64,000 bases of DNA from Spirochaetia bacterium (GTDB lineage: Bacteria; Spirochaetota; Spirochaetia; DSM-2461), in assembly GCA_963666985.2 (NCBI GenBank), contig CAXXIA010000001.1:64001-128000 (forward strand). The letters run 5' to 3'. The notes below the pieces were generated by a model. It was not told where the DNA came from, ran no database searches, and was given only the letters and a program-made list of their open reading frames with translations. Shown here in pieces: positions 6,000 to 22,408 of this stretch; within the stretch, counting starts at the first letter, position 1, and every line of letters starts with the position of its first letter. The position numbers and the translations under genes were made by a program.

Positions 6000-6046
6000 A
6001 GTGGGAAAGCCCGTCTACCCGGAGAAAGCGCGGAGTTTTTTGATCA

Positions 6047-7081
6047 TCAGAGCGGCGGCCATCTCAGACGGGGACTTTTAAGCACTTCCGGATTTATAAT
6101 CGAATCCGGAAGGCGGCCTTCGGCGGCGTCCAAAATATCGGAGACGATGGCCTTCCTCATTCTTCCGAGCGCATCTTCGCTGTACCAGCCCATGTGCGGG
6201 GTGATGATGACATTGTCCGTAAAGAAGAGGGGATGTCCTCCCGGCAGCGGTTCGGGATCGGTGGAGTCCAAGGCCGCGCCGGCCAAATGGCCATTTTTGA
6301 GAGCCTCCGTCAGCGCTTCGGTGTCCACGAGACTGCCCCGCGCCGTGTTCACCAGGAGTGCGCCTTTTTTCATTCGGCCCAAAAGATTCCGGTTGAACAT
6401 CCCTTTTGTGTCTTTGGCGGCGGGAATATGAATACTCACCAAGTCCGAGCGGGCGATTAAATCATCAAAGGAAGCGGGTTCCGCACCGAGTTCCCGAATC
6501 CGGCCCTCTTCCATATAAGGATCGCAGGCCAGCACCCGGGAGGCCACCGGCTTCCAGAGCCGGGCCGCCTCGGTTCCGGTTTTCCCGAAACCCACCAAAC
6601 CTACCGTCAGCGATCCCAAACTGCCGTAGGGCATGATTCGCTTCAGGTTCCACCCGGCGTCGGTGCCCATATGCGGCGAGGATGCCACGGACTGCTGAAG
6701 AGGGATTCTTAAGGCCAGGGAGAGCCCCAGGACAAAGGCCTGTTCGGCGGCCTCGCGGCTCCAGAAACCCGGTTCGTTGATGCACACGATGCCCGCTCGG
6801 GTCGCCGCGTTCAGATCAAGATTGTCGTATCCGTCGCCGTGGCGGATGATGAGCCTGCATTCCGAAAGCCCCCGGAGAACCTCCGCCGTTATGTGCGCCT
6901 GGTCCACGACGAGAATGTCGGCATCCTTAACCTCGTTAAGGAGTTCTTCGGCCGGCGCGCCGCGAAGCTGGTGGTGGCGGTAGGCGATGGAAGTCCCGGC
7001 GAATTGTTCTTCTTCCCAATTTAAGTTTTCTTCGACGTAGTCCGTGACGGCGCAAAGGATTTTTTTCTTTTCGGAATCCAT
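6047..7081 (-). CDS. D-isomer-specific 2-hydroxyacid dehydrogenase (CtBP/PGDH-like)
   Basis: RHGDGYDNLD, GLVGFGKTG, VNTARGSLVD, DPEP and ITPHMGWYS. Confidence 0.9.
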   Translation of the reverse strand: MDSEKKKILCAVTDYVEENLNWEEEQFAGTSIAYRHHQLRGAPAEELLNEVKDADILVVDQAHITAEVLRGLSECRLIIRHGDGYDNLDLNAATRAGIVCINEPGFWSREAAEQAFVLGLSLALRIPLQQSVASSPHMGTDAGWNLKRIMPYGSLGSLTVGLVGFGKTGTEAARLWKPVASRVLACDPYMEEGRIRELGAEPASFDDLIARSDLVSIHIPAAKDTKGMFNRNLLGRMKKGALLVNTARGSLVDTEALTEALKNGHLAGAALDSTDPEPLPGGHPLFFTDNVIITPHMGWYSEDALGRMRKAIVSDILDAAEGRLPDSIINPEVLKSPRLRWPPL

Positions 7082-7173
7082 TGCGCCATTATACAGATCG
7101 GGGAACTGAAAAACGATCCCAAGACGGGTAATGAGGTTTCACTATCGGTATTCGGCGTGATTGCGCGTGTATG

Positions 7174-8190
7174 TCAGGCTTCGAAAATCTTCGAAAAGCG
7201 CCGCGGCTCCCTCGCTTTCCATACACCCGAATGGAAAACGGAACTGATCATCAGGGGCAGAACCGTCGTGGCCTCCGCGTACACCATCTGTTCGGCGACG
7301 GTGTCCACCTTTCCCCAGCTGGAAGCTTCCTTCAGAGTCGAGCTGGAACAGGCCCCGTCCCGCACGTCGGCCACGGTAATCTGAACGGCGTAGGCATGCA
7401 TGGGAACTTCCCGGCCCAGAACCTCCGCGCATACCACGGTATCCTGAGCGAAGTTTTTCGGAACGCCGCCGCCGATCATGATCAATCCAGTTTTCTCTGC
7501 GCGGATTTTTACTTCCGTGAGTTCCCGGAAATCCCGTACGCTGTCGATGGAAACGTACTTGTCTTTGCCTTCCTGATGGAGAACCAGCCCGAATCCCGCG
7601 CTGGAGTCGGAGAAGGCCGGACAGAATATCGGAACGTCCATCTCGAAACAGGCCTGCACCAGAGAATCGGCCTTTTTGGCGTTTTTCGTCAGGTAGCGGC
7701 CCATCTCCCGGATAAAAGCGCGGGAACTGTAGATGCCCGGAGGCAGAGAATCGGCGATTTCGCAGATGGTGCGGTCCACAACCTGCAGCTCTTCCTCGTC
7801 GATGAACGTATCATAGATGCGGTCCACATAGTTCTCTCTGAGCACCGAATCGTCGATGAACGGAGTCCCCCGGTAGTGGCGGAATCCCAAGGCTTCCAGG
7901 AAATCCATATCCACGATGGAGGCACCCGTGGCCACCACGGCGTCCACCATTTTGGAGCGGACCATGTCGATGTAAACCTGCATGCATCCGGCCGCCGAGG
8001 TGCTTCCGGCCAGGGTGAGAATCACCGAGCAGTCCTTATCGCCGACCATGTTTCGGATGATTTCCGCGGCCCGTGCCGTATCCCGCGAAGCGAAGGACAT
8101 TTTCGCCATGGCGCCGATGATGGGCGTCGCGTCGAAATCCTTAATGTCGATATGCTCGATGGTTTCCTGAAGCAGATCTTTTTTATTCAT
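7174..8190 (-). CDS. Deoxyhypusine synthase-like protein (SpeY-type, homospermidine pathway)
   Basis: YVDRIYDT, FCPAFSDSSAG, GGGVPKNFAQ and DGACSSSTLKEASSWGKV DHS motifs. The start is placed at ATG 8190 (GGAGAG RBS), overlapping the agmatinase stop. Confidence 0.88.
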   Translation of the reverse strand: MNKKDLLQETIEHIDIKDFDATPIIGAMAKMSFASRDTARAAEIIRNMVGDKDCSVILTLAGSTSAAGCMQVYIDMVRSKMVDAVVATGASIVDMDFLEALGFRHYRGTPFIDDSVLRENYVDRIYDTFIDEEELQVVDRTICEIADSLPPGIYSSRAFIREMGRYLTKNAKKADSLVQACFEMDVPIFCPAFSDSSAGFGLVLHQEGKDKYVSIDSVRDFRELTEVKIRAEKTGLIMIGGGVPKNFAQDTVVCAEVLGREVPMHAYAVQITVADVRDGACSSSTLKEASSWGKVDTVAEQMVYAEATTVLPLMISSVFHSGVWKAREPRRFSKIFEA

Positions 8191-9067
8191 GATTCTCTCC
8201 ATAGGCATGGCGGTAGGCCATGATTTTATAGGCGAGCTTGGCCGCCGTGAATTCGGGCGCGGAATCTCCGTTCGGACAGAGTTCCACGATATCCGCGCCG
8301 ATAACCTTATTCGTTTTGAACAGAGCCGCCAGGGCGCCTGTTAAATGATACCAATTCAGTCCTCCCGGTTCCGGTGTTCCCGTGGCCGCCATAACGGAAG
8401 GATCCAGAACATCGAGATCGACGGTAATATACAGAGGACCCCGGACGGCGTTCGTCATTCGGGTTATCCAGCCGCCTTTTCCATGCGGGCCTTTCTCAGC
8501 GGCGGCATCGGAAGCGATTTCGTCGGCGAATATAACCCGGCTTCGGTCCATTCGTTCGTTTTCCGATCGGTCCATGGACCGGATGCCCACCTGAAAGATC
8601 TTCGCAACTTCCAGGGCCCGGGCCATCACGCAGGCATGGTTGTAGCGGCTTTCCTCGTATTCGTCCCGAAGATCCGAATGGGCGTCGAATTGAACCACCG
8701 TCAAATCAGGATAGCGGGCTGCGGCCGATTCGATGATTCCGGCGCTTACCGAGTGTTCGCCGCCGAGGAACATCGGAAACGATCCGGAATCCCAGATTGA
8801 ACCGCAAAAATCCCGAACCGAAGAGGCCATCGCCTCGGGGGATGAAAAATCATACGCTTTTTCGGCGATTCGAACTCCGGCCCTGTACGGTTCGCTGTCG
8901 GTTTCGATATCGTACAGCTCCACCTGAGAGGACGCTTCAATGAGGGCCCTCGGTCCCCCATCGGCCCCTTTCCTGTACGTACTTGTCCCGTCGTAGGGAA
9001 TCGGTACAATCAGGAAACCGGGATTTTCGGCGGTTTCCGGGATGTCAAGAAAGGGCGAATACGGCAT
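8183..9067 (-). CDS. speB: Agmatinase / ureohydrolase
   Basis: GGEHS, QFDAHSDLR and DLDVLDPSVMAATGTPEPGG. The start is uncertain: ATG 9067 or in-frame ATG 9127. Confidence 0.9.
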   Translation of the reverse strand: MPYSPFLDIPETAENPGFLIVPIPYDGTSTYRKGADGGPRALIEASSQVELYDIETDSEPYRAGVRIAEKAYDFSSPEAMASSVRDFCGSIWDSGSFPMFLGGEHSVSAGIIESAAARYPDLTVVQFDAHSDLRDEYEESRYNHACVMARALEVAKIFQVGIRSMDRSENERMDRSRVIFADEIASDAAAEKGPHGKGGWITRMTNAVRGPLYITVDLDVLDPSVMAATGTPEPGGLNWYHLTGALAALFKTNKVIGADIVELCPNGDSAPEFTAAKLAYKIMAYRHAYGENHE

Positions 9068-9141
9068 CGGCGCTATCCCGGCGCGGACGGCAAAAAAATC
9101 CGGCCAAGATTGTTCGGCCGTCCGCATGAAAAAAGTGAGTA

Positions 9142-9170
9142 ACAATAGACTCCCGATTTAGACGTGTCAA
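9142..9170 (-). promoter_or_regulatory. sigma70 promoter of the speB-DHS operon
   Basis: TTGACA-17 nt-TATTGT on the minus strand. Confidence 0.7.
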
Positions 9171-9293
9171 TAAAACTTCACGCTGAATTTGTCCCGCAAG
9201 AGAATTGACCGAGACTCATTTCAAGTGCTTAATGAACGGTGCAATCCGGGACTCTCATCAGCTTTGCGGAATTGATACAATGAAGCAAGGCCG

Positions 9294-11270
9294 GTGAGAA
9301 CTCCGGATGAAATGCCGCATTCGGGAGGCGCGATTCGCTTGAATAAAAATCAATCGCTGAGCAGGTGGTCCGTGGACGATTCGGCCGAGCTCTACGGACT
9401 GAATCTCTGGGGACGGGATTATTTCACGGCATCCGACGAAGGTCATGTCGTGGTGAAACTTCCCGACGGTCGAGGCGGGCACTGCCGGGCCGATCTGTAT
9501 GAAATCGTTAAGGGGATTGAAGAGCGGGGGATTTTGTTTCCCGTACTGCTTCGTTTCCCCGACATTATCAGACAGGAGCTCGGCGAACTGAACGAGTCGT
9601 TCGCCGAGGCGATCAAAGAAACGGGATACTCATCGGAATATCGCGGCGTTTTTCCCATCAAGGTTAATCAGCAGCAGCAGATTATCGAAGAGATTGTGAA
9701 GGGGGGATTACCCTATCACCACGGACTCGAAGCCGGAAGCAAGGCCGAACTGTTCATTGCTCTGGCCATGCTGGACGATCCGGATGCCCTGATTGTCTGC
9801 AACGGATATAAAGATTCCGAGTTCATCGATTTGGCCCTTCTCGGCTCCCAGGCGGGAAACCGCGTGATTCTGGCCGTGGAGCGGCCGGGGGAGATTGATC
9901 TTATTCTGGAGCGGTCCGAAATTCTCGGTATTGATCCTGTTTTGGGAATCCGAGCGAAACTTTCTTCCTACGGAGGGGGGAACTGGTCTTCCTCGGGGGG
10001 GGATCATTCGATTTTCGGCCTGACGGCCTCCCAAATACTCGATGCCGTGGAAACGCTCGGCAAGGCGGGGCGTCTTGACTGCCTTCGGCTTCTTCACAGC
10101 CATATCGGTTCTCAGATACCGGATATCCGCTCCATTCGGCAGGGAGTCCAGGAACTTGTCCGCTACTACGTGTCTCTCGTCAGGGAAGGCGCGCCCATGG
10201 GGTACCTCGACATCGGCGGCGGTTTGGCCGTGGACTATGACGGTTCGAATACGAATTATGCCTCCAGCAGGAATTACAGCACGAAGGAATACTGCGTCGA
10301 CGTTGTGGAAGCCATTCAGGGCATCTGCAATGAGGCAAAAATCGCAGAACCGGTTATCATCACCGAATCGGGACGGGCGATTACGGCCTATTCGTCCGTC
10401 CTGCTTTTCAACATTTTGGATGTAAATCGCCTTGATCCGGAATCCGACGACATCGGAATCCCCGAGAACGCTCCCGCGGCCCTGCAAAATCTCGCGGATC
10501 TCGCCCGTGAGGGGATCAATATTAAAAATCTCCAGGAATCGTTCAACGATGCGTTGTTTTACAGAGATGAAATCAGAGGGAAATTTCTTCTCGGAGATTT
10601 GGACCTGAGAACCAGAGCGCTCGGCGACCGGTGCTTCTGGCGCATCTTGAGAACCATTAACCGGCTGCTTCCTTCGGTGAAACGCGTTCCTGAAGAACTT
10701 CAGGAACTCGATCAGCTTCTTGCGGACATATACTATGGTAATTTAAGTATTTTCCAGTCTTTGCCCGACAACTGGGCGATTGAACAGCTCTTTCCCGTTA
10801 TGCCCATCCATCGCCTCGACGAACGGCCGGAAAACGCGGCCGTGGTCGCCGATACCACCTGCGACAGCGACGGGAAAATCGACCGGTTCATTAATGTTCA
10901 CGACGTCGATCGAAGTCTGCTGCTTCACGATCCCCGCGAGGGTGAGCCGTATGTCGTCGGCGCCTTCTTGGTCGGAGCCTATCAGGAAACATTGGGAGAT
11001 CTTCATAATCTCTTCGGCGATACTCATGTGGTCAGCATTGTCGTGGACGAGAACGGTGATCTGGATTTTCAGAGGGAAATCACCGGGGATTCGGTCGCGG
11101 ATGTGCTCAGCTATGTGGAATACGATCCCAAAACTTTGGCCGGAGGATTCCGCGATCGACTGGAACGGGCCGTCAGGCGGGGTCGGATTACTCCCGGATT
11201 ACGCCGCCGAATTCTGAAAGCTTATGAGGACGGGCTGCAGGGCTACACGTATTACGAGCAGGAAGAGTAG
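9294..11270 (+). CDS. speA: Biosynthetic arginine decarboxylase
   Basis: YRGVFPIKVNQQ (PLP lysine), GLEAGSKAE, HSHIGSQI, DIGGGLAVDYDG, TCDSDG and GAYQETLGDLHNLFG. The start may be a downstream codon. Confidence 0.95.
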   Translation: MRTPDEMPHSGGAIRLNKNQSLSRWSVDDSAELYGLNLWGRDYFTASDEGHVVVKLPDGRGGHCRADLYEIVKGIEERGILFPVLLRFPDIIRQELGELNESFAEAIKETGYSSEYRGVFPIKVNQQQQIIEEIVKGGLPYHHGLEAGSKAELFIALAMLDDPDALIVCNGYKDSEFIDLALLGSQAGNRVILAVERPGEIDLILERSEILGIDPVLGIRAKLSSYGGGNWSSSGGDHSIFGLTASQILDAVETLGKAGRLDCLRLLHSHIGSQIPDIRSIRQGVQELVRYYVSLVREGAPMGYLDIGGGLAVDYDGSNTNYASSRNYSTKEYCVDVVEAIQGICNEAKIAEPVIITESGRAITAYSSVLLFNILDVNRLDPESDDIGIPENAPAALQNLADLAREGINIKNLQESFNDALFYRDEIRGKFLLGDLDLRTRALGDRCFWRILRTINRLLPSVKRVPEELQELDQLLADIYYGNLSIFQSLPDNWAIEQLFPVMPIHRLDERPENAAVVADTTCDSDGKIDRFINVHDVDRSLLLHDPREGEPYVVGAFLVGAYQETLGDLHNLFGDTHVVSIVVDENGDLDFQREITGDSVADVLSYVEYDPKTLAGGFRDRLERAVRRGRITPGLRRRILKAYEDGLQGYTYYEQEE

Positions 11271-11288
11271 AAGGCGCGCTGAGGGATT

Positions 11289-11333
11289 TATCGATATTTC
11301 AATGAGTGACTGAAAAGCCACGGGAAGAGCGCC
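11289..11333. repeat. 45-bp direct repeat, left copy (displaced 3' end of the 21223-22032 gene)
   Basis: TATCGATATTTCAATGAGTGACTGAAAAGCCACGGGAAGAGCGCC, identical at 44 of 45 positions to 21224-21268. Confidence 0.92.
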
Positions 11334-11361
11334 ATCTTTTTAATTAAGAAGGGGGCCGGAG

Positions 11362-13452
11362 TCAGTTCATCGCGTATGTATGGCGAGAAATGATCTGTTC
11401 TTGATATTCCGGACTCAATTCACAGAAATAACCGCTCCAGCCCCAGACTCGGACAATCAGGTTCTTGTGATTCTCCGGATGCTCCAGGGCGTCCTTCAGC
11501 GTCTCCGGATTGAGCGTATTGAGCTGCAGTTGCTGACATCCGAGTTGGGCGAAGGTTCGGATGAACAGGGCGACTTTCTCGAGCGCATCATCGTCTGAAA
11601 AAATCGTTTGTGAGAGTTCCATGGTGATGGGGCCGCCGTTGCATATTCGATGGTAGTCGATTTTGGCGAATGACTGCAGGACACTAATCGGGCCGCGAAC
11701 TTGTGCTCCGGGCGAGGGGGCTAGGTTGGCGGCGAACATGCTTTCTTTTCTTCTGCCGTCGGCTGTGGCTCCGACGATTCGGTCCTGTGTGTCTCCGCAA
11801 TCTCGAGCTAACCATAAGTAGTACATTGCGGACCCGCTGCCGGGCCTGAAGCGGCCGCCCCGGCTGTTATCGCCTTGTCGATCGCATGCGTCGGCCATGT
11901 ATGAAAAGAGACGGGTGAGTATCGAATCGACGGCCTCATCGTTGCATCCCACTTTTTGGCCGGTAGCGAGGAGTTGACGTACATCCTCGAAACCTTTGAA
12001 ATCGGTTTCGAGAGCGTTCAGGAGTCTTTGAGAAGAAAGGCACTTGTCCTCGAAGACAAATTTCTTCACATTGATCAGTGCATCGGCGGCGCTGCTACAT
12101 GCCGCACCGTGAATGCCGTAGTTGTTGTAGGCTGCGCCCTGGGAGATATCTCGTCCCTGTTCCAGACATCCTGTCATAAGGACTGAATAGAATGGTGCGG
12201 GGGGAAGGAGCAGATCGCGTTTCCCACGGGCCAATTGCTCGATTTGTCGGTCGATGTTCCGTTCCACTCGATCCATGATGTTTTCGAAGTTGCGGTCGTT
12301 CTCGGTTAAACCATCAACGATGGCTTCATGAGCCGCCAGAGGAAACGAAACGGCTCCGATGTTTACGACTTCCATGCCCTTACCGGGAATAATGAATTCC
12401 CAGCAGGCCGCGACGGTATAGTCTCTTGCGTCTTTCAAATCGTATCCCATGGCGGTCAGAGCCGGGATTATCACATCGTCGTTGGAGTATTGAGGAAATC
12501 CTAAGCCTATTTGTGTCAGGCGGGCCGCTGTCATAAGGAGATTTTTATCCGTATCGGCGTTGATTCTCAGATTGATCTTGGGATCTATCATGGCGACGTC
12601 ACGGGCAACCCGCAGAACTATATGAGTGAGTTCATTTACGGCGTTTTTCCCTTGTCTCGTCACCCCGCCCAGCATAAGGGACTGGCCGTTGTCCCCCTGC
12701 TGGACGCCGGGATACAGGTCTGAGTCTCTATTTAGGGAGATGAAAAACTCGGCGAGGAGTTCTTCGGCTTTGGGAAGGGACAGAGCACCGGATTGGAGAT
12801 CGTTTCGGAGATAGGGCCACATGTATTGGTCGAATCGTCCCAGGCCGACATGGTAGTTCCCGCTCATCCAGACAGCGGCATGAAGCAGGCGGAGCGATTG
12901 GAGCGCCTCGTGAAAGTTTCGTGCGGAGAAGGCTGGAACACGGGACAAGACGATCGCCAGGTCCATACGGCCAATGCGCTCCGCTTCTTTTTCGTATCGG
13001 GCGGCCAAATCGAGAACAGCGTCCATGGTTTCGATTGCCGCTGTGAGAAACTCCACGGCGTCCCTGTCGTGCTCATGGCTCCGGAGGCTCTTTTCGGCAG
13101 CCGCCTTCCGGCCGGAAAGCCCCTGGGAGAGAACCATGCCCCAATCGGCGCAGATATTGCTGATCGGTCCCGATTCATGGCGGCTCCGGCCAGCAAAAAA
13201 GGCCTCCCATTCCTCGGGAAGGTACAGCGGCGCGATGCCGGGAACGGTCCTGGTGAAGGCTATCTTCTGGTCGGGTTCGATTACGGGGAATTCCGCTTCA
13301 CATTGCCGCCGAGTCAGCCTGGCGGCCCTCATGGTCCATGACAGGTTCTCCACTTCGCATTCGGGAATAATATCCGGGACGCTTTGAAGGCGCCATTTGC
13401 GCTGTTCCCGGTTTCTGACCCGATTTCTCATTGCTTCAAGCCGTTCGTTCAT
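11362..13452 (-). CDS. Glycyl radical enzyme (PFL superfamily), atypical short form, function unknown
   Basis: GLGRFDQYMWPY, Cys loop DYTVAACWEF, ATADGR and C-terminal glycyl loop LIVRVWGWSGYF. 696 aa. Confidence 0.92.
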   Translation of the reverse strand: MNERLEAMRNRVRNREQRKWRLQSVPDIIPECEVENLSWTMRAARLTRRQCEAEFPVIEPDQKIAFTRTVPGIAPLYLPEEWEAFFAGRSRHESGPISNICADWGMVLSQGLSGRKAAAEKSLRSHEHDRDAVEFLTAAIETMDAVLDLAARYEKEAERIGRMDLAIVLSRVPAFSARNFHEALQSLRLLHAAVWMSGNYHVGLGRFDQYMWPYLRNDLQSGALSLPKAEELLAEFFISLNRDSDLYPGVQQGDNGQSLMLGGVTRQGKNAVNELTHIVLRVARDVAMIDPKINLRINADTDKNLLMTAARLTQIGLGFPQYSNDDVIIPALTAMGYDLKDARDYTVAACWEFIIPGKGMEVVNIGAVSFPLAAHEAIVDGLTENDRNFENIMDRVERNIDRQIEQLARGKRDLLLPPAPFYSVLMTGCLEQGRDISQGAAYNNYGIHGAACSSAADALINVKKFVFEDKCLSSQRLLNALETDFKGFEDVRQLLATGQKVGCNDEAVDSILTRLFSYMADACDRQGDNSRGGRFRPGSGSAMYYLWLARDCGDTQDRIVGATADGRRKESMFAANLAPSPGAQVRGPISVLQSFAKIDYHRICNGGPITMELSQTIFSDDDALEKVALFIRTFAQLGCQQLQLNTLNPETLKDALEHPENHKNLIVRVWGWSGYFCELSPEYQEQIISRHTYAMN

Positions 13453-14207
13453 TATCGAATTCGTACCTCCAGTCCTAATTCTTGAAATGGTTTCGGGTCG
13501 GCGTTTACCTCCCCCTTTTCATCAAATCCCGGCTTGAACGCCATACCGAGTCCTGCGTATTTCCCTCCGGCGGCGCGGTTGTATCGCAGCAAATCGATTC
13601 GTCGGAGATTTTTCATCCGCGAGGCCGTCCGAGCGATCCTGTGGAGATTATCGTCCGTGTCGGAGACGCCGGGCACCAGGGGCACGCGGATGATCAGCGG
13701 AGTCTCCAGGGCATTCATCTGGTCAAGATTCGCCAGGATCGCCTCGTTGCCGCATCCCGTGAACCTCTTATGGAGGGCTTTATCCATGATTTTCAAATCA
13801 AAGAGAACCAGATTACATTTTGAGACGATTTTTCGGAAAAGCTTCGGCTCGCCGTATCCGCTTGTATCCAGGGTGACGTGCAATCCATGGAGTCTGTCGA
13901 TAACCTCGATGAGGAACGGGACCTGGCAAAGTGGCTCTCCTCCCGAGAATGTTACTCCGCCGTCGTTCGCTTGGAGTATCTCCGATTGACGGTTGAGCAA
14001 CTCCGCAAGATCCTCGGATGAGTATCGTCGGCCCACGAGGCGATCTCCCAGGGGACGGTGCATAAATTGCGGCTCAGGTGATTGGCTTTCCGGGTTATGG
14101 CACCAAGTGCACCGCAGCGGGCAGCCCTTCAAAAAGACCGTTGTCCTGATTCCCGGTCCGTCATGGACGGCCAGTTCCTTGATATCGAAAAGCATTCCGG
14201 TTTTCAT
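13452..14207 (-). CDS. Glycyl-radical enzyme activating protein (radical SAM)
   Basis: HDGPGIRTTVFLKGCPLRCTWCHNPES (CxxxCxxC), GGVTFSGGEP and DTSG, with no ferredoxin insert. The start is placed at ATG 14207 (MKTGMLFDI). Confidence 0.93.
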   Translation of the reverse strand: MKTGMLFDIKELAVHDGPGIRTTVFLKGCPLRCTWCHNPESQSPEPQFMHRPLGDRLVGRRYSSEDLAELLNRQSEILQANDGGVTFSGGEPLCQVPFLIEVIDRLHGLHVTLDTSGYGEPKLFRKIVSKCNLVLFDLKIMDKALHKRFTGCGNEAILANLDQMNALETPLIIRVPLVPGVSDTDDNLHRIARTASRMKNLRRIDLLRYNRAAGGKYAGLGMAFKPGFDEKGEVNADPKPFQELGLEVRIR

Positions 14208-14233
14208 GGAACAAATGCTCTTCCGTCCGGCAT

Positions 14234-16628
14234 TCAGGCCGGATAAGGCAATTCGACGATGCCGAACGGAACAATGTCCCCTTCGTATCGTTTTCCGCCG
14301 ATTTTCAATCGATAGCTCGACGCCGTTCCGCATGTTTCGTTCAGCACAAGGAGGTTCTCCGCATGTCTGAATCCCTCCAGGACGACATTGGAAGGTGACA
14401 AATCGTAAAGCGGGATAGCGGGAACCGCCGGAATCTCGATGGATTCGATGATGCCGGTCCCGAAACCGTAAGCACGTCCCCAGGCGGGCATGAGCGCGGC
14501 CGACGACGGCTCGGAGAATTTTCTGATGACGAATCGATGAACGTATTCACCGTAGAACGGCTCCTTGTACCATTCGGTTTCCGCCCTCACATCATCGACG
14601 TCGTTCCCGACGTGGAAGTTGAGTTTTCTTCGGCCTCCGCTGGTCGTCGAGCGTCCGAGACACAGGGATATTTCTCCGGTCTTCCCGCATACTCGAAAGG
14701 ATTGAGCGCCGGTTTGGGATGCCAGAAGGTACCCGGTGCCGTCTTGTCGGCAGAGGACGTGAGAAAGGGCCGCGATGTACGCCGGCTCCTCCCGGGGATG
14801 ACGGATTTCCCCAAAGGGTCCGTCGTACCAGATTTCTCCGGCGTCGCCGGTCTCCAGGCGAGCCTTGATGCCGCCGGGAGCAAAGTCCATCTCGCCGAGG
14901 GTTTCGGGTAATTCCGCGTCCACCAGGGCGGGTGCCGTGAAATGGAATTTCCACATCACGTATACGGCGTCCCCGTCCGTCGTATAGACGGCTTTGTGAT
15001 GAACGTGCCAATCGATTTGCTTTTCGATGATAAGAGACGGAGATTCCCCCGGAATAACGCTGACTCGGGGAGAGCCTTCCGGGCGGCAGGGACGTTTTCG
15101 GTCATCGAGTCTTTTCACGAGGATCTCGAAAGGCGCCAGAGCCAATGTCGCTTCCTGTCCATCTCGGCGAATGACGAGGGCGCCGTCCCGTTCCTCGAGT
15201 TCCATTGTTCCTTTGGTGATTTTCTTGCCGCCCCGGCACTTAGCCGTTTCCGGCGAGGACTCGCGGCGGAACAGGATGGGGACGGCATGGTAGGGGGAGG
15301 CGTCGAATCGGATGAGGTGTTCATAGCCTTCCGGAGACCTTCGAATGGAAATAATCTTCGCCATTTCCGTCCCATGGACGATTTTTAAGGGCTCCTCGGC
15401 TGTATGGGTCCGCAAAAATCCACTGAACGGCGTGTTGTTGATGAACCAGAATCCGGATCCCGTCGTGCATTCTTCGTCCGCCGCCGACGACAGCCGTCCC
15501 AAGGCATAGTCGTCCGCGATTCGGGACGCTTCAATGAAGCTTTCCCGCCGTTCTATGGTTCTCTCGTACATCGGATACCATCCTCGGGCATCCGAATTTG
15601 TTCCCCATACGAGCAGATGCCGCGACCTTTCCAGCGGATGGACGCGGTCCGAGAAGCGGAAGTAATTCCGTTCAACATCGGGATAGTCGTTAAGACTTTC
15701 GACGTTCCAGGTGATATCGGACCGGGGATGCCCCGCGGGTGCTTCCGTTTCGTCATTCTCCGCGCCGACGGACAAGATACCCGCCCGTCGGTAGGCTTCC
15801 ATCGCTTTCAGGGTCAGGCGGTGGGTTTCGATGTCGATAGGCTTGGACACCCAACGTGAATGGCTCGGGGACCGGGTGCTTCCTTCCGCCTTGTTGGTGG
15901 AGGGCCCGGGCTTCTTCGATCCCTTTAAGCCGTGTTTCCGAATGTAATCCGAGACGAACGTCCATTCGGCATCGATTTCGGCGTCGATCAGAGCCTTTCG
16001 AAGTTCCTCGCTCTTTTTGATCGTATCGGGGATTTCTAAGTCGTTTTGGAAGGTCAAAAGTGCATTGTCGGGAATGGATGCCGGATCCAAAGACGCGATG
16101 TCGTCGACGCCGAGTGTGGGAACTCCGACACATCGGCTGCCGTCGAGGCCTTCAAGGGTGTAGGGAAAAAAACGGTTTGCCCTCCCAGTTTTTGATAATA
16201 ACCCATTGGACGTCAAGCCGGTCGATGATGTAGGGGAGTTGCGGATAATACGCGACTTCCTGGATAAAAAACCCCTCTGGCGGGCCAAGTTCCTTCTTGG
16301 TGATCGACGTTCCCAGCATAGCGGAATCGAGTGCCGTCATTCCGTTTAGACACATTCCCACGGGTTCCGAATAGTAAGTTCCCATATAACGAACGCGCTT
16401 TTTTTCATAAAGGCGGTGGATGCGATCCAGGACATCGGGAGCGCAGATTTTCAGAGACTCAAATGTCTGCCCCGGCAATTGGAAATGAACTTTGGTCGCA
16501 GGATTGGCCTCGACATAGTCCAGGAACAAACGATAGATCGCCGGGAATTTTTCCCAGATAATCGACTTGCTTGATCTGTCGTAATTCATGTTGGGGTGAA
16601 CCGTATTCGTTATGTACACTTTCTTCAT
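14234..16628 (-). pseudogene. GH57-like glycoside hydrolase (about 797 aa if joined), interrupted by a +1 frameshift in a T7 run
   Basis: The N-terminal frame (MKKVYITNTVHPNMNYD...GTYYSEP...GFFIQEVAY) stops at 16152. The C-terminal frame continues FFPYTLEG...FQNDLE. Removing one A from the A7 run at 16166-16172 fuses them. This could be a sequencing error. Confidence 0.7.
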
Positions 16629-16790
16629 GTGCGCGCAATCCTGTGGATAAATTTCTTGATTGAAGACTGAAACGGCCGTTTTTTCGTGAATGGGGAGCAT
16701 CGAAAGGAACAGTTCTTTCAGTCTTCGAAATACCGGTTCCTTGACCGTCGATTCCAACCCGGTTCAACATCGTTTCCTTCGGGCTGAAGA

Positions 16791-16830
16791 AAAGGGCAGA
16801 AGATTCCCGCGAAATGGAGAATCCTCTGCC
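16791..16830 (-). terminator. Stem-loop / terminator between the binding-protein gene and the catabolic genes
   Basis: Minus strand GGCAGAGGATTC-loop-GAATCTTCTGCC followed by CTTTTCTT. Confidence 0.55.
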
Positions 16831-16856
16831 TCCTTGATTTTTTCCGACCTTTCCGG

Positions 16857-18098
16857 CTATGGTGCCAAGTTTGACACGATTTCGTCGGCGGTCGTCTCGC
16901 CGTTGATCAGCGATCGAATGCCGGCTCCAAGACCGTCCCGAATTCGGGACGGCAGATAGTCTACCAGCATGCCGGAATCCTTGGTCGTTTCTTTCAGATG
17001 GGCCAGGGCAATCTTATAGATGTCCTGGTTCCACATGCCGTTTGCTGCTGACGAGGAACTGAGCATGTTTCCTTCTTGTGCGATCGAGATCTGCGATTCA
17101 TCGGAGAACATATGAAGCAGGAACGCGACGGCCGCGTCTTTGTTCTCGGTGTTTTTTGGAATGACGAAAACCTGTCCGCCGGAAGCGCTCCAGGGAGCGA
17201 AGGGCTTGTCGGTGAAGAGAACGGGCTCATCGAAAGAGGAATACCGAAAGTCGGCCGGTTTCGCCGCTTCGAAATTCGAAATAACCCACGATCCCATGGG
17301 AAACATGGCCACCTTGCCCTTGATGAAGAGGTCGATGCTGCTTTCGTAACTCACGCCTGTCATCGAAGGATCTATGACGCCCGAATCACGAAAATCCTCG
17401 ACGATGGCCAGAGCGTCGCGCAGGCCTTGCAGATCCCAATCACCGGATTCAACGGCCGCATTGACGGGATCGAGACCCATGATCTGCGCCGTGATCATTC
17501 CCAGGACGGCAGTGCCGGTCCAGGTATCCTGGGCGCCCCACATCACCGGAATGTATCCGGCATCCGCGATCGTTTTCGATACGTCGATCAGCTCATCGAG
17601 GTTTTTCGGTTCCGAAAGCCCGAGTTTTTCGAAGATATCAACGTTGTAGTACCATTCGATAGGCGCGGGACTGTCGGCGATTCCGTAGATTTTATCGCCG
17701 AATTTTCCCCAGCCGGCGCACAGTCCGTAGAGGCTCGCATCCAGACCGTTTTCGTAGAACACGTCCGTCATGTCCATCAGCATACCGTTGCGGGCGTAGT
17801 CCATGAACCGATCATGAGTGGTCCCAACCACATCCGGCGCCTCGCCGGCGGAGAATTGAGTCCGGATTGCGTCATGGTAGCCGGTATTCGTCGCCCAGAG
17901 ATCCACCTCCACTCCGGGATTCGCCTCCTGGAACGCCTCGACGACGCCGGGATAGCCCTTCGCCCTGGCGACGGTCGTGTAATATGTCGAAACCCGTAGT
18001 GAAACGGTTTTTGCCGAATTGTCATCTGATGATCCGGTTGCAAATGCAGAGCCGATGGTGACGGCAAGAACGAAAGCCGTCATGAGTCCTTTCTTCAC
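16857..18098 (-). CDS. Carbohydrate ABC transporter solute-binding protein (family 1)
   Basis: Signal peptide, FQEANPGVEV, GEAPDV, YYNVDIFEKLG and FIKGKVAMFPMGSW. GTG start with AAGGAG RBS. Confidence 0.9.
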   Translation of the reverse strand: MKKGLMTAFVLAVTIGSAFATGSSDDNSAKTVSLRVSTYYTTVARAKGYPGVVEAFQEANPGVEVDLWATNTGYHDAIRTQFSAGEAPDVVGTTHDRFMDYARNGMLMDMTDVFYENGLDASLYGLCAGWGKFGDKIYGIADSPAPIEWYYNVDIFEKLGLSEPKNLDELIDVSKTIADAGYIPVMWGAQDTWTGTAVLGMITAQIMGLDPVNAAVESGDWDLQGLRDALAIVEDFRDSGVIDPSMTGVSYESSIDLFIKGKVAMFPMGSWVISNFEAAKPADFRYSSFDEPVLFTDKPFAPWSASGGQVFVIPKNTENKDAAVAFLLHMFSDESQISIAQEGNMLSSSSAANGMWNQDIYKIALAHLKETTKDSGMLVDYLPSRIRDGLGAGIRSLINGETTADEIVSNLAP

Positions 18099-18250
18099 GC
18101 TATACTCCTTAATTTCATTTTTTCGTTGTCATGATCAGATAGAATTTTTATTGCGATTTCATGTTTTGTTTGACCTCCTTATCCGCTGTTCTCAATGTTG
18201 CCTATTGATTCATGGCATCCGATTTTCCGATTGTTTTGTTGTTCTTTCAG

Positions 18251-19060
18251 TCATCCCTTGAGCGAGCCGGTGAGTCCCCCGATAAACTGTTTCTGAAAAA
18301 AGCCGAAAAGGATAATTACCGGGAGACTTGCCAAGATGAGCCCCGCGAAAAGCATGGGATAATCGGTGGAGTATTGCCCCATTGTCGAATAGATTCCGAT
18401 ATTCAATGATTTGAGCTGCTCCTTGAACAGAAGGACGAGTGCGACGATAAATTCGTTCCAAAGCCAAACGGATTGGAAAATGATTACGACGCTCAGCCCC
18501 GTTTTGGAGACGGGCAGGACGATTCTGAAGAAAATAGCCGGTTCCGAGCATCCGGCAATCCTAGCCGAATCCAAAAGATCGTCCGGAAAATCCCGGAAAA
18601 ATCCTTTAAGAAGGAACACCGTGAAAGGCAGGCCCAGCGCGATGTACACCAGGATAATCCCGATGCGTGTATTTACAAGGTGAAGCATTTTCAGGTAGTA
18701 GAAGAACGGTACCAGAAGCGCAACGGCCGGCGTCATTTGTCCCATGAGCAGCAGTAACTGCAACCGTTTTTTGCTTTTGATCGGGTATTTCTCCAGAGAA
18801 AAGGCGGCCAGGGAGCCGCAGAGGACCATGGCTCCGACACCGGCGGAGGAATAGATGATGCTGTTTAAGGAATAACTCAAGACATTTACGTTGTTCCAGA
18901 TCCCGACATAGTTGTCGAAGCCGAAAGATCCGGAGCCGGTACGGAACGAGCCGATAAGCATTCTCACCAACGGCATAACCGTGATCAGCGATGCAATCGC
19001 GAGAACGGCATAAATAAGGATATCGGCCGCCGTGTTTTTTTGACTTTTCTGCGTTTTCAT
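18251..19060 (-). CDS. Carbohydrate ABC transporter permease (MalG-like)
   Basis: EAA-like loop DLLDSARIAGCS, WNEFIVAL and FQKQFIGGLTGSLKG. Confidence 0.9.
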   Translation of the reverse strand: MKTQKSQKNTAADILIYAVLAIASLITVMPLVRMLIGSFRTGSGSFGFDNYVGIWNNVNVLSYSLNSIIYSSAGVGAMVLCGSLAAFSLEKYPIKSKKRLQLLLLMGQMTPAVALLVPFFYYLKMLHLVNTRIGIILVYIALGLPFTVFLLKGFFRDFPDDLLDSARIAGCSEPAIFFRIVLPVSKTGLSVVIIFQSVWLWNEFIVALVLLFKEQLKSLNIGIYSTMGQYSTDYPMLFAGLILASLPVIILFGFFQKQFIGGLTGSLKG

Positions 19061-19075
19061 ATCCGACGTTCCTTT

Positions 19076-19978
19076 TTAACGGCCATGCCGGTTCTGTAAT
19101 TTGAAATAGACCGACGATATCACGACGACGATGAGCAGCATGACAATCGATAAGGCGGCCGAGTAACCCAATTTGTAATAATCGAAACCCGTCTTGTAGA
19201 TATACGTCCCGATGACCTGAGCGGATTTCGGCGGGACGGCCGTCGCCATCACGAGGAAGGGATCGATGACCCGGAACGCGTCGATGAGGTTCAGCATGAC
19301 TACAATGCCGATGAAAGGGCGAATAAGCGGCAGAGTAATCAATGAGGCGATTTGCAGCCGGTTTGCGCCGTCTATTTTTGCCGCTTCCATGATTTGTCCC
19401 GGGATGTTTCTGATGGAAGCCGAATAGACAACCAAACCGAACCCAAAACCTTTCCATACGGACGCCGCGGCGATCGAGAGCATGGCCGTGGAAGGATCTC
19501 CGAGCCAGTTGCGCGTTAAGGCCGACAATCCTATGGTCCTGAGGGCGATGTTAAGCATCCCGTCGTAGGGATTTAGGAGGCGTTTCCACAAGAAACCGAC
19601 AACAACCCATGACAAGATGAATTGGCTGAACAGCAGGAATCGATAAACCTCGCGCCCCTTTACATTCCCGGTCGAAACATCGCTTTCCAGGAGAAGCGCC
19701 AGCAGAAGGGCAACGATATTCCCGATGACGATTGTATACAGTGCATAAAGGGAATTATTGAGAAGGGATGTCCAGAATGTTCCGTCCGAAAAAATCTGCA
19801 GGTAGTGGTCCAATGCAACGAAATCCATTTTCCCGAGTCCGTTCCACGAGAAGAAGCTGAGAACCAGAGAACAGCAGAGGGGAATGATGAAAAAGAGACC
19901 GAATATCGCCAATGCAGGAACGAGGAATAATCGGCCCCAAAAGACCGTTTTCTGTATCGGTTTACTTGTATTTTTCAC
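19076..19978 (-). CDS. Carbohydrate ABC transporter permease (MalF-like)
   Basis: WLGDP, IMEAAKIDGA, ITLPLIRP and GYSAALS. Confidence 0.9.
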   Translation of the reverse strand: MKNTSKPIQKTVFWGRLFLVPALAIFGLFFIIPLCCSLVLSFFSWNGLGKMDFVALDHYLQIFSDGTFWTSLLNNSLYALYTIVIGNIVALLLALLLESDVSTGNVKGREVYRFLLFSQFILSWVVVGFLWKRLLNPYDGMLNIALRTIGLSALTRNWLGDPSTAMLSIAAASVWKGFGFGLVVYSASIRNIPGQIMEAAKIDGANRLQIASLITLPLIRPFIGIVVMLNLIDAFRVIDPFLVMATAVPPKSAQVIGTYIYKTGFDYYKLGYSAALSIVMLLIVVVISSVYFKLQNRHGR

Positions 19979-20000
19979 AAAAAGCTCAATTAGCTCTAAA

Positions 20001-20040
20001 TGGTATATGGTATATTATATGGTAAAAGTGTATGTTTCAA
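20001..20040 (-). promoter_or_regulatory. Promoter of the cassette operon with TGGTATA direct repeats (candidate operator)
   Basis: TTGAAA-17 nt-TAATAT on the minus strand. Plus strand has TGGTATA at 20001 and 20008 and TGGTAAA at 20020, overlapping the -10 region. Confidence 0.5.
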
Positions 20041-20155
20041 GTGTTTTTGAATAAATTATTGAGATATTCATCGAATTTCCCTAGAATATCGCATCAGTGA
20101 TGCAGAAGCGGCAGGAAGCCTTACCTAAAATTTCTGAAGCAATCGGAAACAGTTA

Positions 20156-21211
20156 ATGCCAATAGAAAACAAGCAAAACGGAATCGTCAGAATCCTGGAA
20201 CAGCGTATCGCGGATGGCATATATACGAACTCTCTTCCAAAGACCGGCGACCTTAAGGAAGAATTCGACGTCAACCTCAAGACCTTGAACAAGGCGATTC
20301 TTCGATTGGTCGATAGGGGGCTCGTTTACAGAAAGCCCGGTAAGGGCACGTTTGTCGCAAAAGCTCCCGAAAAGGTTGAAGACACTCTCATCGAACTACT
20401 GTTCGTCGGTTCTTCCGAAATGTTCATCCATCCGTTTTACAGCGACATGTGGAGGGGGCTTCTCGATGGAATTGAAGGCGCCGGATATAAGCTTGTCTTG
20501 ACGTCTCTCGAGGAGAACGAAAAGAGGGGAGGCCTGAAACGAGTCTGCCAGGATACGATTTCGTCCGCAGCGAAAATTCTCGTTGGAACGAATAACGCGG
20601 AGCAACTGAAGATCCTGAAGAAAAGCAAAGTTCCTATTTTGCTCGTGGGGGAAAAAACGGACCTTCCGGATGTCGTGGCCGTGTATACCGATATCAGGGA
20701 AGCGGTTTCGGAGGCCGTCCGTTATCTTCGGAAGAAGCGGATCGACGATATCGCCTTCATCGGTCAGACCGCAGCCGACGGTGAGCATCTTTGGAATCTG
20801 GACAAATTCCATTCGTACTTGGAAGAGATCCAAAGAAAAGGCGGCATCAACAGCGACCTCATCATCAATACGCCGTCTTTCGCCCGTTTCGGATATTCGT
20901 CCATGAAGGCAATACTGGACAAGCAAATCCCCCAGGCGGTCATTTCTGCGTATGATCATCTTGTTCCCGGAATCTATGAGGCGATCAAGGAACGAAATCT
21001 GTCGATTCCGGACGACATCAGCGTCATCGGGATCGACGGCTTGGATTTAAACTTGCACCCCAAGTTGACCAGCATCCCCGTTAATCGATATCAAATCGGC
21101 TTGACCGCCGGCCGGCAGATTGTCGCCATGATCCGGAATCCGCGGAAGAAATATCAATCGACCATCTTATCAACGACCTTTGATCCGAAATCCGGAGAAT
21201 CTGTAAGATGA
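20156..21211 (+). CDS. GntR-HTH / LacI-type effector-domain transcriptional regulator (AraR-like architecture)
   Basis: N-terminal winged HTH ending RKPGKGTFV and a C-terminal sugar-binding domain (IPDDISVIGIDG, LTSI). Divergent from the transporter operon. Confidence 0.88.
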   Translation: MPIENKQNGIVRILEQRIADGIYTNSLPKTGDLKEEFDVNLKTLNKAILRLVDRGLVYRKPGKGTFVAKAPEKVEDTLIELLFVGSSEMFIHPFYSDMWRGLLDGIEGAGYKLVLTSLEENEKRGGLKRVCQDTISSAAKILVGTNNAEQLKILKKSKVPILLVGEKTDLPDVVAVYTDIREAVSEAVRYLRKKRIDDIAFIGQTAADGEHLWNLDKFHSYLEEIQRKGGINSDLIINTPSFARFGYSSMKAILDKQIPQAVISAYDHLVPGIYEAIKERNLSIPDDISVIGIDGLDLNLHPKLTSIPVNRYQIGLTAGRQIVAMIRNPRKKYQSTILSTTFDPKSGESVR

Positions 21212-21222
21212 ATATTCAAAAC

Positions 21223-22032
21223 CTATCGATATTCCAATGAGTGACTGAAAAGCCACGGGAAGAGCGCCTCATCCGTATAACAGGGGCCGGGTGTGTGTCC
21301 CATCCCTGTGTATTCACTGTATTTGAACATGGGATGGAAGATGCGTGTGAGTGTGACGGTCGTTCGTTCATATCCTGTGAAGGTATCGGAAGCCGATGTT
21401 TCAAAGGCGCATGCGTTGCATGCATAGGAACGCATGTTTTCCAGGGCTTCTCGGGCAACCTCGACTCTGGTTTCGGTATCGGAGAGACCGATGTGATACC
21501 AAAGGGCGGTTTTCTTTGCAATGTCGTTTCCCAAATCGGACTGACTCTGACCGGCAACCCGAATAATGGCCGCAAAGTACAGATTCTCCGCATACAGCCC
21601 CTTGGCCAAAGGATAGCTGCCCGATTCTCCGGCGGAAAATCCGGTTAAATAGAGACGGTTTGTATCAATCCTGAACCCTGCGTCTATGGCGCTTTTAATC
21701 CATTCTCCCAGAGCCTGTCCGTCGGACTCAGAGGTCTGCTGATAATCAATAACGAAGGCCGGATAGACCTGTGCCGCCCGGCTGTAATAATAACTTTGTC
21801 CCTCTCCCCAGCAGCCGGAAACCAAGAGGGGGTATTTTCGAAAGGCATTTTCGAACTTTTCGTATCCCCAGGGAGTAAAAAAACTCAGCCCTTCGTGAAT
21901 TACTTCCTCCGGAGCATCGGCGTCTTCGAAGGTCTCTTCTTGAGTTTGAGCGAAATTGTTGTCCCACGGATTGACGCATGAACAAAGAGAAGAAAGGCAG
22001 ATGAGGGCAAAGACTCTGTTTCCGATTTTCAT
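21223..22032 (-). CDS. Putative lipoprotein with an alpha/beta-hydrolase (esterase-like) fold
   Basis: Lipobox-like LCSC, nucleophile elbow LYLTGFSAG, and candidate Asp (GLSD) and His (GMGH). Confidence 0.7.
   Translation of the reverse strand: MKIGNRVFALICLSSLCSCVNPWDNNFAQTQEETFEDADAPEEVIHEGLSFFTPWGYEKFENAFRKYPLLVSGCWGEGQSYYYSRAAQVYPAFVIDYQQTSESDGQALGEWIKSAIDAGFRIDTNRLYLTGFSAGESGSYPLAKGLYAENLYFAAIIRVAGQSQSDLGNDIAKKTALWYHIGLSDTETRVEVAREALENMRSYACNACAFETSASDTFTGYERTTVTLTRIFHPMFKYSEYTGMGHTPGPCYTDEALFPWLFSHSLEYR
21224..21268. repeat. 45-bp direct repeat, right copy (current 3' end of the lipoprotein gene)
   Basis: Identical at 44 of 45 positions to 11289-11333. Encodes ALFPWLFSHSLEYR and part of the stop codon. 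Confidence 0.92.
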
Positions 22033-22136
22033 TTTCTTCCTTGTTTCAGGAAAAAATAGCGCGTTTTTTCGTTATGTCCAAGGCCTCAAAGGGGCTTACA
22101 AGATGTGCTGGGGAAAGGTTCGTGAAGTTGTGTTTT

Positions 22137-22271
22137 TGGCGGGAGGGCAGGACTCGCCTTCCACTCGCCGTCGTCGTGACGGCTCCTTCCAGGCCGCTGG
22201 TTCAACCTTCCTCGACTTGCTGTCTCGGATCGCTTCCTATTCGGTCGCGACCGGTTTCACCCTTCGAGTCC
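22137..22271 (-). repeat. tRNA-associated structured element ending in a tRNA 3'-end mimic
   Basis: Minus strand starts GGACTCGAA (reverse complement of the T-arm TTCGAGTCC) and ends CGAGTCCTGCCCTCCCGCCA, similar to the 3' end CGAGTCCTGCCCCTGCTA of the adjacent tRNA. Confidence 0.5.
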
Positions 22272-22282
22272 TTTTTATCGAC

Positions 22283-22324
22283 AAAAAAAGACCGGAAGCC
22301 CTTTTTAGGACATCCGGTCTTTTT
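22283..22324 (-). terminator. Terminator downstream of tRNA-fMet
   Basis: AAAAAAAGACCGGA-loop-TCCGGTCTTTTT, symmetric, with a T-tract on both strands. Confidence 0.7.
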
Positions 22325-22396
22325 AGCAGGGGCAGGACTCGAACCTGCGACCTCCGGGTTATGAGCCCGACGAGCTGCCAACTGCTCTACCCTGCG
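22324..22396 (-). tRNA. Initiator tRNA-Met (CAT)
   Basis: Cloverleaf CGCAGGG...CTCATAA...TTCGAGT...CCCTGCTA. The unpaired C1:U72 and three consecutive G-C anticodon-stem pairs indicate an initiator tRNA. CCA is not encoded. Confidence 0.95.
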
Positions 22397-22408
22397 GCGT
22401 GCCTGAAG

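Follow-up and report, generated by a model that had tools for sequence, protein, structure and literature searches.

A glycyl radical enzyme cassette between two copies of a lipoprotein gene end in a spirochaete: a probable integrase-free insertion with long target duplication

The stretch of DNA analyzed here (64,000 nucleotides, positions 64,001 to 128,000 of contig CAXXIA010000001.1 in the Spirochaetia bacterium assembly GCA_963666985.2; hereafter the window) carries a cassette running from a regulator gene to a glycyl radical enzyme (GRE) gene, enclosed by two copies of the 3' end of a lipoprotein gene. We consider it probable that this cassette is a strain-variable block inserted by host recombination without an integrase, and the locus belongs to an already known class (Furuta 2010, PMC2853133), that of the insertions with long target duplication. 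The direct repeat occupies 11289-11333 and 21224-21268, with 44 of 45 positions identical, a spacing of 9935 and a sole mismatch, T at 11299 versus C at 21234. The original prediction, made from the letters of the window, had described this duplication, and its coordinates were reproduced. The same applies to its statement that the right copy ends the lipoprotein gene while the orphan left copy encodes the same tail in frame. The right copy closes an open reading frame (ORF) of 269 aa at 21223-22032 on the minus strand (...SHSLEYR-TAG), and the left copy, which has K for E and TAA for TAG, lies 17 bp past the speA stop at 11270. The enclosure is as tight as had been claimed, with 28 bp from the GRE stop to the left copy and 12 bp from the regulator stop to the right copy. 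The features at the two junctions are:

9294..11270, plus strand: speA (arginine decarboxylase), forming the left flank; at the empty site described below it faces the lipoprotein gene convergently
11289..11333, minus strand: left repeat copy, orphan tail of the lipoprotein gene with K267 and a TAA stop (11288-11290); same allele on the empty-site contig of runs X4-X6
11300..11333 (= 21235-21268), no strand: identical core of 34 bp, perfect identity, defined from the joint 11299 to 21235
21224..21268, minus strand: right repeat copy, serving as the lipoprotein gene's 3' end today, with E267 and a TAG stop (21223-21225)
21223..22032, minus strand: target gene, predicted lipoprotein of 269 aa, esterase/peptidase-like (GFSxG motif), patchy distribution

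An ungapped scan of both strands of the 4.86 Mb genome found these two copies of the 45-mer only, the next-best window matching at 28/45, so the objection that it might be a multicopy repeat fails. With a duplication that is longer than 30 bp and unique in the genome, and an insert shorter than 20 kb, the locus has the properties by which insertions with long target duplication are recognized. A scan of the left junction for promoters and terminators revealed none.

The evidence that carries this reading comes from a close relative. The run data consisted of Logan unitigs and contigs; organism A is represented by run X3, possibly the window's own source sample, and organism B by the public runs X4, X5, and X6, which stem from one sample. 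Organism B has an identity of about 98% in the flanks, with 71 differences among 3300 left-hand bases and 45 among 2634 right-hand bases. Runs X4, X5, and X6 each yielded one contig in which 11299 is followed immediately by 21235, so that 9935 bases are passed over; no extra letters stand at the joint, where 34 bases fit either side. The predicted empty site, with the lipoprotein gene convergent with speA and a single repeat copy, was thus found, and it upholds the claim that the cassette is a strain-variable insertion bounded by a duplicated protein-gene 3' end. Since the empty-site contig has the left allele, the orphan left copy represents the tail that the gene had originally; it equals the functional tail of organism B at 45/45 positions. 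The right copy is the incoming or a later-changed version. Unitigs of X3 hold both alleles, which meet at a common 34-bp unitig of depth 8. Their depths are 4.41 for the left flank, 4.41 for the cassette and 3.2 for the right flank, with no cassette excess in data of a kind (contigs) that cannot show rare excision. The unitigs of X2 and X3 fit the integrated order but end at the 34-bp core. Among congeners, which do not have the target gene and show an identity of only about 65-70%, a DNA search is unable to show an empty site.

The locus resembles the published insertions with long target duplication (PMC2853133) in several respects, namely an insert below 20 kb, a unique duplication above 30 bp, no other mobile genes, copies that differ by 1-3 mismatches, an empty site in a relative, and a repeat across the stop codon that keeps the target whole. 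In H. influenzae the duplication measures 46 bp in two cases, and repeats of this class often span start or stop codons (PMC2853133). It departs from the screening criterion of that study in lacking R and M genes, its cargo consisting of a regulator, an ATP-binding cassette (ABC) transporter, a hydrolase-like gene, an activase, and the GRE; the host here is a spirochaete. Because the cargo is a sugar ABC/GRE block and not a restriction-modification system, the break cannot be ascribed to a nuclease of the cargo. The mechanism has been recognized for DNAs other than restriction-modification systems as well, according to the passages of PMC3457768 cited here. The likeness extends to Campbell integration in E. 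coli conjugation, where a homologous gene part of variable length is duplicated without an integrase. In the part of that work cited here, single crossovers of trimmed, recircularized donor DNA accounted for 56 of 60 clones, and the 14 clones sequenced had duplications of 109-950 bp (PMC3240628). That is a laboratory substrate, whereas the present duplication is natural, 45 bp long, and has a donor that was not found. Homology-facilitated illegitimate recombination (HFIR) offers a further parallel, in that one-sided homology anchors foreign DNA, and the excerpts used here invoke it for orphaned 3' gene pieces (PMC3240628, PMC5361080). As described there, HFIR usually deletes recipient DNA; in the window nothing was lost, 45 bp were duplicated, and no donor tract is visible in the anchor gene. 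The empty-site joint, free of extra letters, likewise indicates no recipient deletion, unlike classical HFIR.

The same layout is present elsewhere in the genome. A survey of direct repeats lying 1.2-100 kb apart gave 57 alignments outside a large integron-like array, mostly insertion sequence copies, tRNA-linked repeats, and paralogues. Six further near-unique duplications (33, 50, 89, 127, 56+171, and 904 bp) bound cargo at unrelated targets:

G000:C2:2263931 and 2276173: 127 bp over the start of a mocR-type gene (L219), 12.2-kb ABC/kinase/two-component block
G000:C2:1599683 and 1603920: 89 bp starting one base before an ATG (L218), 4.2-kb Crp/ABC/cupin block, GC 42%
C2:2219810/2229524: 33 bp, intergenic, before phnG (L220), 9.7-kb block, GC 44%, no integrase
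C1:1479045/1486481: 50 bp, intergenic, aldo-keto reductase region (L221), 7.4-kb block, no integrase
G000:C1:1208863-1209088: 56+171 bp of a topoisomerase IV-type gene (L222), an orphan, internally deleted piece 4 kb downstream of the gene
C2 266832/270590: 904-bp duplication

In congeners the mocR site is empty, mocR lying beside an aminotransferase gene at 3/3 loci; the orphan copy is again the one that runs into the ancestral neighbor, and the mismatches of this 127-bp repeat cluster outside the coding part. The 89-bp site is empty too, with an AMP-ligase beside a hydrolase at 6/7 loci, and its repeat has four more look-alikes of about 76% in the genome. Similarity trails on beyond the 33-bp and 50-bp repeats (p=0.003 and 0.0005, respectively), and the topoisomerase piece is likely a decayed longer duplication. 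Recombinase matches were found in 0/6 of the other regions scanned (five of the six blocks plus a tRNA-Gly block), and the check for the 904-bp case consisted of the genome-wide PF00589 list only. Because the duplication lengths vary and the sequences are unrelated, a general homology- or repair-driven process is indicated. The tRNA-Gly block itself (L223, G000:C1:407352-418136) is an integrase-free sugar-ABC block between tRNA-Gly(CCC) and a partial tRNA copy, with tandem tRNA-linked repeats.

For the origin of the cassette, the original prediction had offered either a site-specific recombinase acting in trans or homology-driven capture. The latter proved the better option, while the former found no att-like core, no integrase downstream of homologous genes, and no conserved target in its favor. 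Under host recombination, the cassette would already have lain beside the lipoprotein gene in a close donor strain, and a transferred fragment, trimmed to the last 45 bp of the gene, would have been closed into a circle. A single crossover in the 34-bp core would then have placed it in the chromosome, whereby the gene would take the incoming tail and the old tail would move by 9.9 kb. Survival would be favored where the duplication runs across a start or stop codon, so that the gene stays whole. The cassette has no replication or transfer means of its own, and the reverse crossover would remove it at low frequency. A ComEC-family gene in the genome adds little weight, 10 of 14 control genomes having one as well.

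Several observations weigh against this reading. A homology of 34-45 bp is near the lower limit of RecA, which is about 25 bp in E. coli. The donor step is unseen, since a lipoprotein homologue beside a GRE orthologue occurred in 0/80 GRE loci and 0/42 lipoprotein loci. Divergence in the lipoprotein segment is below that of the flanks (10/1118 bases versus 1.95%, Poisson p=0.004), and the segment thus shows no diverged donor tract. The duplications of the E. coli experiments, at 109-950 bp (PMC3240628), also exceed this homology of 34-45 bp in length. Furthermore, the empty site fits insertion in organism A and loss in organism B alike, and as the joint would look the same after a crossover in the core, it cannot by itself separate the two. 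The composition of the cassette is unremarkable, at a GC of 53% and with 32% of 233 windows deviating more; composition was accordingly rejected as a sign of foreign origin. Finally, the congener checks of the other duplications covered four cases, among which the topoisomerase (parC) case was uninformative and the 33-bp case inconclusive.

Two alternatives retain a modest probability, each being in our view clearly less likely than insertion by recombination between homologous tails. The first is a true target duplication, in which the lipoprotein gene end took up foreign DNA at a staggered break or through template switching; the recipient would then have furnished both copies, and the mismatch would have arisen later. 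It needs no target-bearing donor, and none was found; one later change in 45 bp is plausible given the divergence of about 1% between the two alleles of the gene; and K267 is the family consensus of the lipoprotein, while E267 looks derived. However, the identity ends exactly at the stop codon here and begins one base before the ATG in the 89-bp case, and the position of the mismatches in the 127-bp case, outside the coding part, is easier to reconcile with a related donor than with a fresh copy. The second alternative, to which we give similar odds and which is compatible with the other readings, reverses the polarity, the cassette and its repeats predating the split and organism B having lost the block between them. 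A crossover in the 34-bp core yields exactly the observed empty site, and repeat-bounded indels in Haloquadratum were mostly deletions where the direction was readable, with the caution in PMC3119063 that such indels are often deletions. Reversed polarity nevertheless leaves the origin of the repeats unexplained, and the cassette is found in 0/37 family genomes. Moreover, the duplication is young, because the orphan copy matches the functional tail of the relative at all 45 positions.

Site-specific integration, either by a tyrosine recombinase acting in trans or as a cis-mobilizable element (CIME) that lost its integrase and kept attL and attR, appears unlikely. The repeat does fall within the 8-60 bp range of the att repeats of integrative and mobilizable elements (IMEs), and it includes and restores the target gene end, as reported in the sections of PMC5704250 cited here. 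The genome also has seven tyrosine recombinases, two of which are accompanied by att-type repeats (53 bp at tRNA-Val and 22 bp at a prophage). None of the seven is near the window, all PF00589 matches being distant, and no serine recombinase was found in the genome with the two families searched. The claim that the cassette holds no integrase was confirmed, as Pfam annotates all of its ORFs otherwise and a recombinase hidden Markov model (HMM) gave no match; the 28 and 12 bp left inside the repeats contain no integrase remnant. IMEs and CIMEs, as presented in the same sections of PMC5704250, target tRNA or housekeeping genes with a cognate integrase, whereas the target here is a patchy accessory gene for which no cognate element was found. 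It is absent from all 13 congeners (0/13) and present in 11/60 relatives. Between organisms A and B it has 8 differences, 5 of them non-synonymous, against 0/11 at the end of speA (Fisher p=0.005). The target gene is a poor candidate for an evolved integration site.

Loci of target homologues point the same way, with a recombinase downstream in 0/42 (27 of them with at least 5 kb downstream) and upstream in one. Recurrent mobility of the cargo was likewise rejected, recombinases being found at 0/80 GRE loci, 27 of which have more than 3 kb on both sides and 2 of which have spanning repeats. The recombinase HMM was built from the genome's own seven proteins and applied to flanks of up to 10 kb, a scope that may overlook distant integrases. 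Among the 46 non-self rows (48 rows examined, a few of them duplicated), the homologous tail had no att-type duplicate. Rows L054, L080, and L084 gave matches of 21-46 nt to an unrelated C-terminal extension. The one at L084:12704-12749 is a 46-nt, 85% copy of that gene's own C-terminal extension about 2 kb downstream, either a paralogous tail or another gene-end duplication.

The 45-mer itself shows no special core symmetry, inverted repeats as good as its own being present in 38% of 1000 random 45-mers. No match was found in viral contigs or phage records, and the one match in plasmids was at chance level. It showed no likeness to the other ten repeats of the genome (best p=0.047 of 10 comparisons). 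A resemblance to the att repeats at tRNA-Val, tRNA-Gly, and the prophage (22 bp) was considered and rejected, none being significant. A cassette of the genome's large integron-like array was rejected as well, since window positions 11001-22400 have no blastn match in the array at 1.78-1.94 Mb of C2. This array (G000:C2:1777000-1937000) has tyrosine recombinase frames of 283 and 405 codons at its opposite ends.

Slightly less credible still, and frankly speculative, is a dedicated, sequence-non-specific pathway, as opposed to a by-product of RecA, that would paste catabolic cassettes at gene starts or ends while duplicating 30-900 bp. It would account for at least half a dozen events in this genome, and the cassettes would leave as circles and re-enter conspecifics through the terminal repeat. 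An assembly artifact, a multicopy repeat, or the remnant of a decayed paralogue is highly improbable: a faint in-frame resemblance immediately inside the left copy (33 aa by tblastn, E=0.002) is mostly the repeat itself, and the short-read unitigs, which break at the core, do not by themselves prove the integrated order, but the 45-mer has two copies only, X3 holds both alleles at equal depths, and the relative has a single-copy empty site. A decayed paralogue in particular was rejected, the similarity just beyond the repeat reaching p=0.08 and the relative having one gene copy at the site.

With insertion by host recombination as the favored explanation, the cassette is made up of the following genes:

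11362..13452, minus strand: GRE, 696 aa, uncharacterized subfamily, below every NCBIfam cut-off, best homologues 65% identical
13452..14333, minus strand: GRE-activating radical SAM enzyme, TIGR02494 above cut-off
14234..16757, minus strand: glycoside-hydrolase-like gene (GH38/GH57-like), the Atlas score of 0.94 for GH38 being a lead and not an alignment
16857..19978, minus strand: carbohydrate ABC transporter, binding protein and two permeases
20156..21211, plus strand: regulator with a GntR helix-turn-helix and a LacI-type sugar-binding part

Homologues of the GRE number thousands, the best at the identity given above, and an orthologue (E<=1e-100) is present in 0/37 family genomes. The hydrolase-like protein was found in 2/400 phylum genomes at 36% identity, one of the two matches being marginal. 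Based on these two distributions, the cargo is foreign to the lineage. In the window the hydrolase-like gene is broken at an A8 run (16166-16173) into ORFs 16152-16757 and 14234-16288, while an X3 contig that is one base shorter at this run has a single frame of 841 codons. The split is probably an assembly error in the window, or possibly slippage at the A8 run. The GRE subfamily is widespread, with a length of 694-696 aa and the glycyl loop RVWGWS, and no characterized member appeared among NCBIfam equivalogs or PDB matches; a literature search on the function of the cassette GRE returned nothing relevant. Several loci of the subfamily (L146, L147) also hold sugar ABC permeases and a regulator. 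The subfamily probably acts on a sugar-derived substrate.

The target gene is situated in a region that varies as a whole. A tRNA gene marks the start of this larger region:

22324..22396, minus strand: tRNA-Met(CAT), 290 bp upstream of the target gene

Positions of about 6000-22300 of the window form a variable region with the cassette nested inside, because in the congener G006 birA follows tRNA-Met directly. In G006 (L211:2557-5469), two tRNA-Met copies stand 1.4 kb apart where the window has the block 6047-22300, and a dehydrogenase gene, a deoxyhypusine-synthase-like gene, agmatinase, speA, the cassette, and the lipoprotein gene are absent from this place. Behind tRNA-Met in the window lies an element of about 120 nt (22134-22272) that opens with a piece resembling a tRNA 3' end and has relatives near other tRNA genes of the genome. 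Residue E136 of the target protein (21625-21627) is part of its GFSxGG motif; the relative has G at this position, as do nearly all homologues, and judged from sequence, E136 may be a weakening change in the window strain.

The locus represents a clean, allele-resolved case of gene gain without an integrase and with metabolic cargo, in which the empty site tells which copy is the original and limits any crossover to 34 bp. The large and uncharacterized GRE subfamily is a separate, modest point of interest. An attL/attR-like layout at a gene end is in itself no evidence of an integrase, and this genome has about six more such scars. How insertions with long target duplication come about is still deduced from genomes; we believe that this locus, together with the relative that has the empty site, offers a tractable test of it.

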